The translations under genes were made by a program, and so were the position numbers. The notes under the pieces were generated by a model. The model was not told where the DNA came from, ran no database searches, and saw nothing but the letters and a program-made list of their open reading frames with translations. Shown in pieces: positions 3,921 to 17,588 of a stretch of 20,895 nt of DNA. This DNA comes from a virus (lineage: Duplodnaviria > Heunggongvirae > Uroviricota > Caudoviricetes): IMG/VR virus record IMGVR_UViG_2703718846_000002; one strand, written 5' to 3'. How positions within the stretch are numbered: the stretch's first letter is position 1; every line of letters begins with the position of its first letter.

Positions 3921-4253
3921 TTAGACGTAAATATCAATGGTGCCAGCGGTATTTGTATCGTCTTTTTTCTCTTCTTTTTTATCAGGCTGAACTGTCGCGT
4001 CTTCATTCTTTTTCTCTGCCTGCTGCCTTAACAACTGCTCCAGTTGAGCCCAGAGGCTTTCAATTTGCTTCTGTACCAATGCAGCCATTTCTTTTTTCTG
4101 CTGTGTCGTCATCCCCTCTTCCGATGAGATTTTCCCAAGCTTTTCAGTCAGCACCTGAATTTGTCTTGTGATTTTGGCTATTTCTGATGTTCCTTCCGGG
4201 GCGGAGTTGTTTGAAATAACGGTTGAGGTATTTCCCTGAATTGTGACAGACAT
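3921..4253 (-). CDS. flxA: FlxA (flagellar-regulon protein of the Qin prophage)
   Basis: 110-aa ORF (MSVTIQGNTSTVISNNSAPEGTSEIAKITRQIQVLTEKL...) recognised as FlxA; preceded by a sigma-28-type promoter. Confidence 0.8.
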   Translation of the reverse strand: MSVTIQGNTSTVISNNSAPEGTSEIAKITRQIQVLTEKLGKISSEEGMTTQQKKEMAALVQKQIESLWAQLEQLLRQQAEKKNEDATVQPDKKEEKKDDTNTAGTIDIYV

Positions 4254-4455: not shown

Positions 4456-4761
4456 TTATCGACAGGTCAGGTCACCGCTCACCCGCCGACGAGAAAGCAA
4501 CACTGACATGCTAAAGCAAAAAATAGATGAATAAGTTGAGTTGTGCATATGTAGCCTGACCGTCACAAAGTATATGGTGTCTGTACCAGTAAGATGATGG
4601 CCGGACTCTTTAAAAACGAGCTGACCTGCACAATACAGGATGGACTTAGCAATGGCTGCTCCTGGCACAAAGCGGACAGTGATCACCGTTCTTACGACTA
4701 CTTTCTGACTTCCTTCGTGACTTGCCCTAAGCATGTTGTAGTGCGATACTTGTAATGACAT
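4456..4761 (-). CDS. ydfV: Hypothetical protein (ydfV-like by position and length)
   Basis: 101-aa ORF between flxA and relB. Composition is unconvincing and its start codon lies inside the relBE operator region. Confidence 0.3.
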   Translation of the reverse strand: MSLQVSHYNMLRASHEGSQKVVVRTVITVRFVPGAAIAKSILYCAGQLVFKESGHHLTGTDTIYFVTVRLHMHNSTYSSIFCFSMSVLLSRRRVSGDLTCR

Positions 4762-6073: not shown

Positions 6074-6352
6074 ATGGCACGCAACGCAAAATATTACAAT
6101 TCTGATAATTCGCCCGTTCTTGCCTGCACGCACGGGCGGTATTCTCACGCATTCAAGTCTGAATGGTTCCAGCACCCTCCATGCACTGCAGAACAGGCCG
6201 AATGGCTGATTCATTCTTACCGCAGGCGCGGGTTCGAGGTTAAGAAAGCTCTCAGTCTCGACTATCGGCACTGGATAATCTCTGTCAGGCTGCCTTATTC
6301 CGAACGCCCACCACGTGCGTCCCGCACTTTCCAGCAACGGATCTGGAGGTAA
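6074..6352 (+). CDS. Hypothetical protein, translationally coupled to ydfU
   Basis: 92-aa ORF with a GGAGA SD 6 nt upstream. Its TAA stop is followed one base later by the GTG start of ydfU, with GGAGG inside its last codons. Confidence 0.4.
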   Translation: MARNAKYYNSDNSPVLACTHGRYSHAFKSEWFQHPPCTAEQAEWLIHSYRRRGFEVKKALSLDYRHWIISVRLPYSERPPRASRTFQQRIWR

Positions 6353-8590: not shown

Positions 8591-8803
8591 TCATGAAAGG
8601 TAAACATTGGCAGCTGAAGGGCCACGCAGACCATTTATCCGGCAAAATTCCACGCGTAATCCGGTGGTAATTTCTTCTGCATCGCGGAGATTGAGCGCTG
8701 AAACATGAAGCTGGACATCGATACGACCATCGGATGGGGTGATAAGACCCTTGCCGCTTTTGCCGTCAAAGGTTTTGACAATTCCTGTCATTTTACGGGA
8801 CAA
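8591..8803 (-). CDS. cspF: CspA-family cold-shock-like protein (CspF/CspH type)
   Basis: 70-aa [30 protein letters not shown]...[13 protein letters not shown], divergent from cspB as in Qin. The cspF versus cspH call rests on position only. Confidence 0.8.
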
Positions 8804-9103
8804 AAAAATTCCTTAATACTGATAACTTGGCGCACTATACACACGTTCCTGAAGAAAGCTATAGTTTTTTGATGGGGTTGAAGATGGCTGGATGTCTAAA
8901 ATAAACATTGCTTCATATGTTCAACTATGCGTTAATGATTGCGTCGGTTTGAAGAACAGACGATATACGAAGTAGTTTACTAAAGCAGTTCTCATTTCAG
9001 GTGTTATTCACTTATTCCTTCTTTGAGTCTCTCCAATTAAGTACGAAGTCGTTTCTGTTATGCAAACCATTTATGCCGAAAGGCTCAAGTTAAGGAATGT
9101 AGA

Positions 9104-9319
9104 ATGTCAAATAAAATGACTGGTTTAGTAAAATGGTTTAACGCTGATAAAGGTTTCGGCTTTATTTCTCCTGTTGATGGTAGTAAAGATGTGTTTGTGC
9201 ATTTTTCTGCGATTCAGAATGATAATTATCGAACCTTATTTGAAGGTCAAAAGGTTACCTTCTCTATAGAGAGTGGTGCTAAAGGTCCTGCAGCAGCAAA
9301 TGTCATCATTACTGATTAA
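9104..9319 (+). CDS. cspB: Cold-shock protein CspB
   Basis: 71-aa [70 protein letters not shown].... The 5' UTR carries a GCCGAAAGGC hairpin before the SD, as in cspA. Confidence 0.9.
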
Positions 9320-9600
9320 AATTCATCGCTCGTCTGTATACGATAACGAAGAAGGCTGATGCCTGAGTAGAGATACGGACAGAGTAGTGAATATTGGATC
9401 TCTTTAATAAAAAGTAAGGAGGTCCAATACATGAAACAATGGCTAGCATATTTGGCAAAATCTTAATCAGGAAAAGTATGCTAACCATTGTGGTGAAGTG
9501 CAGGTTTGCTGCATGAATAGTTTTACAGCAGAAGCTAACTGCTGGCATGGCAAAACAAAGTGCGTAAGTGGATGACTCCCACAAAAAGCACCACAATCTC

Positions 9601-9623
9601 AAACCCGCTCAGGCGGGTTTTTT
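9601..9623 (+). terminator. Intrinsic terminator with the same stem as the tR'-like hairpin
   Basis: AAACCCGC-TCAG-GCGGGTTT followed by TTTT. Confidence 0.55.
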
Positions 9624-9682
9624 ATTATCTGCTTTAAATATATTATTAAAATATAAAAAATACTTGTTACTAATAAAATCAA

Positions 9683-9853
9683 TCAGGCTACAGCTTTAAG
9701 ATTTGTCTGGAATACTTTGTTGCAATGAGGGCAGATCAAAAGGGCACCTTTTTGTACTCTTGAAAAACTGTGTTCTGACTCTTGGGTGCAGTTTGGGCAG
9801 GAACATTTAACGAGATAATTACGGCGTGATTTTGAGTTTTTACGTTCTGACAT
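9683..9853 (-). CDS. Small zinc-ribbon protein, Com-like (CxxC ... SF ... CxxC)
   Basis: 56 codons from an internal Met with an AGGAAA SD: MSERKNSKSRRNYLVKCSCPNCTQESEHSFSRVQKGALLICPHCNKVFQTNLKAVA. The ORF track extends it to 9904. Confidence 0.45.
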   Translation of the reverse strand: MSERKNSKSRRNYLVKCSCPNCTQESEHSFSRVQKGALLICPHCNKVFQTNLKAVA

Positions 9854-10072
9854 AGGCTTTTCCTGTATAAATGGCCGTATACAGTACACTAAATATGAAA
9901 ACATTTCTCGTATTATTATTTTATATATGACTTTCTTTCAAAATAATTACCCACATTTTTAATGTGTATGTTTTTTTAGCGCCGTTGAGAACAACGTGTG
10001 CTGTCAAAACTACCCCGTAGACTCCGATCTTTTCAAACATATTGCACCATCCGTGTACATCGGGGTGAGGAT

Positions 10073-10288
10073 ATGAAATCAATGGATAAGTTAACAACAG
10101 GTGTTGCCTATGGCACATCGGCGGGTAATGCTGGTTTCTGGGCATTGCAGTTACTCGATAAAGTAACTCCGTCACAGTGGGCTGCAATCGGTGTGCTGGG
10201 TAGCCTGGTTTTTGGCCTGCTGACGTATCTGACAAATCTTTATTTCAAGATTAAAGAAGACAGGCGTAAGGCTGCGAGAGGAGAGTAA
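10073..10288 (+). CDS. essQ: Class II holin/pinholin (phage 21 S-type) with a dual-start motif
   Basis: 71 codons from MKSMDK... with a GGTGAGG SD. Met1-Lys-Ser-Met4 dual start and a hydrophobic core ([18 protein letters not shown]); the ORF track extends it upstream to 9998. Confidence 0.85.
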
Positions 10289-11628: not shown

Positions 11629-11990
11629 GGTAATATTAAATCGGAACATTTACATCGCGGAATGTAAAATTTAAATAAAAAGGACTCTTCCATGAGCCAA
11701 AATTCCTGAAATCTTAAGGGTAAGATAAAAGGTCTTAATCAGAATGACACGTTTTATTAATAAATAAAGCTATTCTTTCATTGCTGTGTTTTTCTTTACA
11801 AAAGTAATCCTTGCTATGGGTGGTTAATCATGCGTTAATGGTGTTCTGGTTTGTTACAAATTTATCTGAAGCAGTCATTGTTATAATTTTATTATTTGTA
11901 CCTCTTGAGATTTCCTTGTTGGTTTTTCTCTCTGATATTTTTTTTCGGACCATTCTGCCCAAGGGCTAATTTCTTCAAAAGGTAATAATT

Positions 11991-12203
11991 ATGTCTAACA
12001 AAATGACTGGTTTAGTGAAATGGTTTAACCCTGAAAAAGGTTTTGGTTTCATCACGCCGAAAGATGGCAGCAAAGATGTGTTTGTCCATTTCTCAGCAAT
12101 TCAGAGCAACGATTTCAAAACATTAACTGAGAATCAGGAAGTTGAATTTGGTATTGAGAACGGACCTAAAGGTCCTGCCGCTGTTCATGTAGTGGCGCTT
12201 TGA
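11991..12203 (+). CDS. cspI: Cold-shock protein CspI
   Basis: 70-aa [73 protein letters not shown]. Confidence 0.9.
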
Positions 12204-12407
12204 GGTAGACAATATTACAAACCATATTCACTTTAGATGCCCGTGTTGTCATGGTTCCCAGTATAGAACATCATCTTTTGATGTTTCTGACATGAATCCT
12301 TTCGGGGCAAAATGTATCTTTTGTAAATCAATGATGATTACATTTGATAATATTTCACAATACTTAAATGCCAGCCGTCTGTCGTTGGATTTAAAAAAGT
12401 GAAAATG

Positions 12408-12474: not shown

Positions 12475-12705
12475 ATGAAAAAAATCATAGTTTTTTTTAA
12501 CTCTGAACCAGCAGTGGTAGTGCCAGCGATGACTGGAGTTAACACCATCATGCGTGAATATCCAAATGGCGAAAAAACACACCTTACTGTAATGGCCGCA
12601 GGGTTTCCATCTCTGACCGGAGATCATAAAGTCATTTATGTAGCCGCGGATCGACATGTTACTTCAGAAGAAATTCTGGAAGCAGCAATAAGGCTCTTGA
12701 GTTGA
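12475..12705 (+). CDS. Hypothetical small protein
   Basis: 76 codons from the internal Met MKKIIVFFNSEPAVVV...; balanced composition but a weak RBS. A competing minus-strand ORF (12391..12657) looks less protein-like. Confidence 0.3.
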   Translation: MKKIIVFFNSEPAVVVPAMTGVNTIMREYPNGEKTHLTVMAAGFPSLTGDHKVIYVAADRHVTSEEILEAAIRLLS

Positions 12706-17013: not shown

Positions 17014-17588
17014 TGGCATTCAGAATGAGTGAACAACCACGGACCATAAAAATTTATAATCTGCTGGCCGGAACTAATGAATTTATTGGTGAAGGTGACG
17101 CATATATTCCGCCTCATACAGGTCTGCCAGCAAACAGTACCGATATTGCACCGCCAGATATTCCGGCAGGCTTCGTGGCTGTTTTCAACAGTGATGAGGC
17201 ATCGTGGCATCTCGTTGAAGATCATCGGGGTAAAACGGTTTATGACGTGGCTTCCGGCGACGCGTTATTTATTTCTGAACTCGGTCCGTTACCGGAAAAT
17301 GTTACCTGGTTATCGCCGGGAGGGGAATATCAGAAGTGGAACGGCACAGCCTGGGTGAAGGATACGGAAGCAGAAAAACTGTTCCGGATCCGGGAGGCGG
17401 AAGAAACAAAAAACAGCCTGATGCAGATAGCCAGTGAGCATATAGCGCCGCTTCAGGATGCTGTGGATCTGGAGATCGCAACGGAGGAAGAAACCTTGTT
17501 GCTGGAAGCCTGGAAAAAGTATCGGGTGTTGCTGAACCGTGTTGATACATCAACTGCACCGGATATTGAATGGCCAGCACTGCCGTAG
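17013..17588 (+). CDS. tfaQ: Tail fibre assembly protein
   Basis: 191-aa [42 protein letters not shown]...; its start overlaps the stop of the fibre remnant (TAATG). Confidence 0.85.

Follow-up and report, generated by a model that had tools for sequence, protein, structure and literature searches.

The zinc-ribbon protein YnfU of the Qin prophage is recurrently encoded beside cold-shock csp genes in Enterobacterales

The open reading frame (ORF) studied here is ynfU (b4776) of the Escherichia coli K-12 Qin prophage, which encodes a 56-residue zinc-ribbon protein with four Cys residues, and its meaningful association was found to be with cold-inducible csp genes and with ynfQ and ynfN, not with the late operon of the phage. 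Taking together the identity of the gene, its membership in a csp cluster of Enterobacterales, the capture of that cluster as a moron and an accessory role of the protein on RNA or ribosomes, we consider this account as a whole to be probably correct. As a discovery, ynfU itself matters little, since it already has a name, carries an annotation in about 1,650 complete E. coli genomes, and has been validated experimentally; what is added here to the known gene is the documentation of its csp linkage and a structured, as yet unannotated RNA in the 3'UTR of cspB.

The window, namely the whole stretch of 20,895 nucleotides that was analyzed, corresponds to the Qin cryptic prophage and carries ydfU, quuQ/ydfT, cspF, cspB, ynfU, essD/essQ, ydfR, rrrQ, rzpQ, cspI, ynfQ, ynfR, and ynfN; the 1-kb stretch around ynfU is 100% identical in DNA to that of MG1655 and many other strains. 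No tRNA was found in the window, and a match to Rfam IS009 (RF02111) was noticed at 17356-17554 on the plus strand with 221 bits. The features to which we refer below are as follows.

8591..8803, minus strand: cspF (annotation), the divergent partner of cspB; the order cspF-cspB-ynfU recurs across genera in the tblastn survey
8943..9335, plus strand: cspB mRNA with a cspA-type thermoregulator leader (Rfam RF01766, 158.8 bits); coding sequence at 9104-9319, convergent with ynfU
9489..9595, plus strand: conserved structured RNA element in the cspB 3'UTR, unannotated (blastn conservation, alignment, and pairing statistics)
9601..9628, plus strand: cspB intrinsic terminator (terminator scan), a AAACCCGC-TCAG-GCGGGTTT hairpin with a T-run, 55 nt beyond the ynfU stop
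9683..9853, minus strand: ynfU coding sequence (translation; RefSeq; PF23499, 107 bits; NF038384, 79 bits; dN/dS 0.10; published translation evidence)
9859..9864, minus strand: Shine-Dalgarno (SD) sequence of ynfU, AGGAAA (read directly)
9912..9941, minus strand: predicted sigma-70-like promoter match, TTGAAA-18-AATAAT, 10/12 (consensus scan), the best in the region and about 60 nt upstream of the ynfU start
10073..10288, plus strand: holin gene essQ, annotated as essD, divergent from ynfU
11845..12402, plus strand: cspI mRNA with a thermoregulator (RF01766, 112.8 bits), then ynfQ; cspI coding sequence at 11991-12203 and ynfQ at 12214-12402

A 56-residue ORF with a good SD sequence had been proposed from the sequence, and this was borne out: positions 9683-9853 of the minus strand translate into MSERKNSKSRRNYLVKCSCPNCTQESEHSFSRVQKGALLICPHCNKVFQTNLKAVA (56 residues and a stop codon), the AGGA at 9864-9861 lies 7 nt before the ATG codon, and the 56-residue form is registered in RefSeq as “putative zinc-binding protein YnfU” (WP_211180497.1). 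In the other genera, CAGGA(G/A) is found at the same position as the SD sequence of ynfU. The longest ORF obtained mechanically begins at an upstream ATG at 9904 and has 73 residues, but this start was rejected because the conserved sequence of the homologues, the models of Pfam and NCBIfam, and RefSeq all begin at MSxRK. The proposed location of the gene, on the strand opposite to both the cspB terminator (9601-9620) and the holin gene (10073-10288) and between the two, was also confirmed; quuQ (Q), ydfR, rrrQ, and rzpQ are all encoded on the plus strand, opposite to ynfU.

With its promoter-like site, its conserved proximal block and SD sequence, and the hairpin before the convergent csp gene, ynfU appears to be a separate unit. 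No co-oriented gene follows it, the next gene being the convergent cspB, and its leader is short and not a long 5'UTR of the cspA type. The 45 nt directly 5' of the ATG codon are conserved across genera, but no precise promoter of ynfU could be fixed from this block. The cspB terminator may end the ynfU transcript as well, which would be a bidirectional use; on the minus strand, direct reading finds merely a short U stretch after the hairpin.

The protein belongs to a small and well-delimited family. YnfU matches Pfam PF23499 with 107.3 bits (cut-off, 27) over positions 1-49 of the 49 in the model and NCBIfam NF038384 with 79.4 bits (cut-off, 36) over positions 1-51 of 52. The zinc-ribbon layout with CPNC and CPHC that had been read from the ORF is confirmed: the two knuckles (CPNC at residues 19-22 and CPHC at 41-44, with 18 residues between them) are conserved in the family. 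Among 33 sequences, P20, C22, P42, C44, and S26-F30 are invariant, and C19 and C41 are conserved in at least 90%; the alignment is thus described by a basic N-terminal tail (R4, K5, R11, and N12), the two CPxC knuckles, and an invariant SEHSF core with K35, followed by a variable region after the second CPxC (NKVFQTNL, STLFKSSQ, and others). YnfU is strongly basic, with 10 Lys/Arg against 3 Asp/Glu residues and a net charge of about +7. Its fold is predicted, in a model of moderate confidence (pLDDT 73), to be one zinc ribbon built on four cysteines, preceded by a disordered basic tail at the N terminus. Furthermore, the median dN/dS of 0.10 (1146 pairs from 75 species) indicates purifying selection, and variability at the three codon positions is 0.18/0.08/0.39, the third positions varying most; the ynfU ORF is thus more than a product of chance.

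The family falls into 49 clusters at 90% identity, and 1.84 billion proteins yield 36 representatives when these are taken at 50% identity; all named members of the family are from Enterobacterales, namely Enterobacteriaceae together with Cronobacter, Mangrovibacter, Hafnia, Serratia, and Erwinia. Its members are mostly stand-alone proteins of about 50-75 residues; longer records are few and seem to be ORFs that were mis-called or that result from read-through. A search of the same 1.84 billion proteins for remote homologues and domain fusions returned nothing informative: the confident matches (E ≤ 1e-10) were short stand-alone proteins or mis-called ORFs, and the few long multi-domain matches were weak (E ≥ 1e-6) and consisted of repeats of the CxxC motif. 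PHROGs contains no YnfU family, giving just weak matches of unknown function (E ≥ 0.002), and none of the anti-phage defence HMMs of PADLOC matched YnfU at E ≤ 0.1.

The gene is already known, in that it is named, annotated, and experimentally detected, with its zinc knuckles published. Weaver et al. (2019; bioRxiv 10.1101/511675) found ynfU by Ribo-RET, the ribosome profiling of stalled initiation complexes, and detected YnfU by means of a chromosomal SPA tag in cells grown in LB at 37 °C, with the prophage uninduced, at the highest level among the small proteins newly found in their study; they also drew attention to its two CPXC zinc knuckles and to PA0128, which it matched moderately in threading. 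Independently, ynfU was detected by PIRT-seq (PMC12350097). The original prediction had named a lack of translation in profiling data as a ground for giving it up; translation of YnfU is, however, published from Ribo-RET, the SPA tag, and PIRT-seq. In our literature search on ynfU/b4776, neither a functional study nor cold-shock data were found, other mentions being incidental, and the linkage of ynfU with csp was not encountered in the literature searched. Of 5426 complete E. coli genomes, 1649 (30%) carry ynfU, nearly always as a single copy, and it is hence an accessory gene.

The neighborhood of ynfU was surveyed at one locus per species; 80 loci were fetched, and the 77 with enough flanking sequence were counted, with the Qin proteins mapped by tblastn and all neighboring ORFs clustered. 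A csp gene was found within 1 kb of ynfU in 55 of the 77 loci, and 94 of 101 csp places were within that distance, the other 7 lying in the 5 kb beyond it on each side; the recurring pairing of small four-Cys proteins with csp genes, which had been put forward from the Qin region, therefore holds across species. The arrangement of K-12, with a convergent csp gene within 500 bp downstream of ynfU, was seen in 37/77 loci, usually with a cspF-like gene after it, while ynfQ and/or ynfN were within 1 kb in 24/77, as a rule upstream and divergent at 140-160 bp. The 4.6-Mb genome of E. coli K-12 contains nine csp paralogs, so that a random site would have a csp gene within 1 kb approximately 0.4% of the time. 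In 12 of 12 loci sampled, the csp neighbor carried the cspA thermoregulator RNA above the gathering score of Rfam. The outer neighbors vary with the genus: Klebsiella and Raoultella have the budR-budAB operon at this place, Kosakonia has fliF/fliG, Atlantibacter an aldehyde dehydrogenase, and Enterobacter various others; ABC transporters also occur among the flanking genes. Since the flanking genes differ between genera, the linkage of ynfU with csp has survived many relocations, mostly outside prophages. Among the distant members, a CSD gene is located 830 bp downstream in Hafnia, a CSD gene and a YmcF-like gene are present and divergent in Mangrovibacter, and the distance is 1.9 kb in Cronobacter; no csp, ynfQ, or ynfN was found near ynfU in the loci of Serratia and Erwinia, and the same applies, besides these, to about 18 of the 77 loci.

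Several other observations were made in these neighborhoods. In loci of Kosakonia and relatives (L050, L052, L054, and L070) and of Erwinia (L091/L092), ynfU adjoins the flagellar genes fliE/fliF/fliG with no csp gene nearby, and this site may be an older chromosomal location of the YnfU family. A long and near-perfect hairpin, TTGCCAAATGA...TCATTTGGCAA, without a U-run was noticed immediately 3' of the stop codon of ynfU in loci of Enterobacter, Kluyvera, and relatives (L038 at 6166-6243; also L051, L064, L076, and L078), and may represent a terminator or a processing site shared with the convergent csp gene. In Kluyvera georgiana (L078, 7538-7682), the SraC/RyeA-SdsR pair of sRNAs is encoded about 1.4 kb from ynfU, and in Superficieibacter (L033, 5740-5869) a match to the sRNA STnc100 lies just upstream of ynfU.

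A frame resembling a paralog had been said to follow cspI. Such a frame does exist and is ynfQ (12214..12402), on the same strand as cspI and with the motifs CPCC...CIFC, but its paralogy with ynfU does not hold: YnfQ belongs to the YmcF-like family of Pfam (PF23641, 109.9 bits), which is different from that of YnfU, BLASTP gave no alignment between the two at E ≤ 100, and the profile-profile comparison by hhalign gave a probability of 1.5%. In Enterobacter, Kluyvera, and Scandinavium, ynfQ and ynfU are divergent and about 140-160 bp apart. In RefSeq, ynfQ of the window starts 11 nt after the cspI stop with a codon for Ile (12214-12216, plus strand) and not with ATG, GTG, or TTG; the mechanical ORF list thus contains just the ATG-initiated part of 36 residues. 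The YnfN-like protein, encoded at 12475-12705 on the plus strand of the window and comprising about 75 residues, is the second most frequent neighbor of ynfU (25 loci), usually in a ynfQ-ynfN pair diverging from it, and matched no Pfam family.

In terms of phage genes, lysis genes, Q, or ydfU adjoin ynfU in just 10 of the 77 species loci. The placement opposite the late operon, which the original prediction had described, is therefore correct for Qin but is not a trait of the family, being confined to those 10 loci (Escherichia, some Citrobacter, and a few others). The holin gene essQ in particular adjoins ynfU just in loci of Escherichia/Shigella, with a weak match in Superficieibacter, and this adjacency is limited to Qin-type prophages. 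Eight of 50,697 phage records carry ynfU; the gene lies immediately before the holin gene, in divergent orientation, both in E. coli and in the active phages HannyBb, 2H10, Tritos, PhiR42_1, and Klebsiella phage ST13-OXA48phi12.4. Of three phages examined closely, HannyBb has the layout of Qin with cspB and cspF, PHB10 has ynfU and the csp pair with no holin gene, and the Klebsiella phage has ynfU beside the holin gene with no csp. No tRNA was found in HannyBb. In Escherichia phage HannyBb (L002), we also noticed that the csp pair (cspB and cspF) at 4038-4250 (minus strand) and 4551-4760 (plus strand) is detected by tblastn at 100% identity and yet is absent from the deposited annotation, which instead lists many ORFs of 30 residues between Q and ynfU.

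Between the stop codons of cspB and ynfU, just before the terminator, a non-coding block of roughly 107 nt was found to be conserved at 70-80% identity by blastn in about 17 species, whereas the surrounding spacer was not conserved. A structure with four helices fits this element, with 91.4% of cells paired against at most 60% in slid controls, and its compensatory cells number 18 against 5.4 ± 2.1 in shuffles (0 of 500). As many as 24 G.U pairs are formed on the plus strand versus 3 on the minus strand, which argues that the element is read in the csp sense, i.e., as an element of the cspB 3'UTR that ends at the terminator. It is present in 1715 E. coli genomes, where it is unannotated, and an Rfam search of the ynfU flanks at E ≤ 1 gave only chance-level matches and no family for it. 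The element also occurs 3' of a plasmid-borne cspG without any ynfU (L097, 2501-2613) and hence belongs to csp rather than to ynfU; most ynfU loci lack it. In the same 3' region of cspB, an ORF of 11 codons (MKQWLAYLAKS; 9433-9468, plus strand), which is not in RefSeq for K-12, is preceded by a near-perfect SD sequence (TAAGGAGGT) at 9416-9424, and the region shows about 70% identity in an alignment with Citrobacter.

In the account that we prefer, the YnfU family consists of stand-alone, Enterobacterales-restricted proteins encoded mostly on chromosomes near cold-inducible csp genes, and is not a component of phage late genes. The usual layout is ynfU tail-to-tail with a cspB-like gene, often with a ynfQ-ynfN pair diverging upstream, all within a few hundred bases, and in Escherichia this cold-shock cluster would have entered Qin-type lambdoid phages as a moron, at a site between Q and the lysis genes. 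As to the protein, we tentatively suggest that YnfU could assist the Csp cold-shock module as a small accessory factor that binds RNA or associates with ribosomes, because it combines a net positive charge and a basic tail with a zinc ribbon carrying an invariant patch and with a recurrent linkage to genes for RNA chaperones. The zinc ribbon and the invariant SEHSFSRVQKG surface would then hold a target, and the basic tail might contact nucleic acid. A post-transcriptional role, on which the original prediction had speculated, may apply. Counted against a role in the csp module are the detection of YnfU at 37 °C in LB, its short leader, and the loci (about 18/77) with none of csp, ynfQ, and ynfN. 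It appears unlikely that YnfU is a dedicated component of an Enterobacterales “cold-shock island” (csp, ynfQ, ynfN, and ynfU) acting on RNA or ribosomes at downshift, with RNA targets such as csp transcripts or the adjacent element in the cspB 3'UTR, and that phages carry this module for the cold fitness of the lysogen. Gene linkage between ynfU and csp can, furthermore, reflect co-mobility rather than shared function. Indeed, ynfU, csp, ynfQ, and ynfN might be unrelated accessory genes that share hot spots of integration, leaving YnfU unconnected with cold shock; the composition of the cluster varies, about a quarter of the loci have no csp, YnfU is made at 37 °C, and its gene has no leader of the cspA type. 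The tail-to-tail arrangement of ynfU and csp is nonetheless kept in at least 10 different flanking contexts, as far out as Hafniaceae, and csp density decreases with distance, with 94 places within 1 kb but 7 in the 5 kb beyond on each side, and we judge such hitch-hiking to be improbable; this judgment is independent of those on YnfU as an accessory factor, as an adaptor, as a phage moron, or as a Com-type activator.

A zinc ribbon of this kind might bind a Csp protein, a chaperone (as DNL fingers bind Hsp70), or an enzyme instead of nucleic acid. All matches of YnfU in this direction are, however, below the family thresholds (13.5 against 27 bits for zf-DNL), the DNL motif is not conserved, and a strongly basic protein with a basic tail is more in keeping with nucleic-acid binding; a protein-binding adaptor is thus a somewhat doubtful proposal. 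The position of ynfU next to the holin gene, which it precedes in divergent orientation in E. coli and in active phages, its expression from an uninduced prophage, and its accessory nature (30% of complete E. coli genomes) would all suit a moron that serves the phage itself, where YnfU modulates lysis timing, late transcription, or superinfection exclusion, or where antisense transcription damps read-through into the holin gene. We nevertheless regard this as quite unlikely, given that 10/77 loci are beside lysis or Q genes and the others have ordinary chromosomal neighbors, that neither a PHROG family nor a PADLOC match was obtained, and that 8/50,697 phage records contain the gene. As for a translational activator of the Com type, YnfU would bind a hairpin in a neighboring csp or lysis mRNA and unmask its ribosome-binding site, as Com of phage Mu does for mom. 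A four-Cys zinc ribbon, a similar size and knuckle spacing, and basicity are what YnfU has in favor of this possibility, and the structured element in the adjacent cspB 3'UTR could in principle be the target; yet no Com HMM is matched (hhalign, 2.1%; a BLASTP alignment of one knuckle with E 0.32), com overlaps mom and shares its transcript whereas ynfU is separate and convergent with csp, and the RNA element also follows the plasmid cspG without ynfU and is absent from most ynfU loci. A Com-type function is accordingly very improbable. The association of ynfU with csp, which underlies our preferred account, is a testable lead to the function of this y-gene, pointing toward low temperature, RNA, and ribosomes.

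Comparison with known systems helps to place YnfU. The label “Com-like” given in the original prediction is tempting but unsupported and has now been removed: YnfU gave no match to Zn_ribbon_Com (PF10122) at E ≤ 10, a model on which Mu Com itself scores 36.8 bits, and homology was rejected on the basis of the hhalign probability of 2.1% between the YnfU profile and Mu Com and of a BLASTP alignment (E 0.32) that covers 18 residues around one knuckle. Mu Com (62 residues) and YnfU have in common that they are small, basic, and phage-borne with one four-Cys zinc site. Their knuckle spacing is similar as well (CxxC-18-CxxC in YnfU versus CxxC-16-CxxC in Com). The gene for Com, however, overlaps the target gene mom and lies in one operon with it (com at 769-957 and mom at 878-1603), in contrast to ynfU, which stands alone, convergent with csp, and is mostly chromosomal. 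The remaining resemblance is that of any small basic four-Cys zinc ribbon.

Two other zinc-binding folds were considered for YnfU. The N-terminal zinc ribbon of PhnA/YjdM (PF08274; PA0128, PDB 2AKL) is its best sub-threshold Pfam match, and 2AKL is the template for the homology model mentioned by Weaver et al.; this candidate was rejected (22.4 bits against a cut-off of 30.8; E 0.29 for 2AKL), and PhnA has an additional C-terminal domain that YnfU does not. The core of YnfU also resembles the DNL-type zinc finger of the Hsp70 escort proteins Tim15/Zim17/Hep1 (PF05180), with C-x2-C...S-x-H-x-x-S...K-G-x-x-L-x-C-P-x-C, but this assignment was rejected likewise, with 13.5 bits against a cut-off of 27, an E value of 0.014 in the PDB search, and no conservation of the motif that defines DNL.

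The YmcF/YnfQ family (PF23641) shares with YnfU a length of about 60 residues, two CxxC pairs, the taxonomic range, and the gene neighborhood. Its members are encoded right after cspG or cspI, and ynfQ is listed as cold-shock induced, whereas no cold-induction data were found for YnfU in the literature searched; ynfQ is co-oriented directly behind csp, while ynfU is convergent or divergent instead. Morons of lambdoid phages occupy the interval between Q and the lysis genes, as stx does in Stx phages. The cspF-cspB-ynfU block of Escherichia resembles them in lying between Q and the holin gene (Qin and HannyBb), where a predicted promoter-like site and a predicted terminator may make it autonomous, and in that the K-12 Qin lysogen produces YnfU without induction. 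Unlike lambdoid morons, the same block is chromosomal and outside prophages in most other genera.
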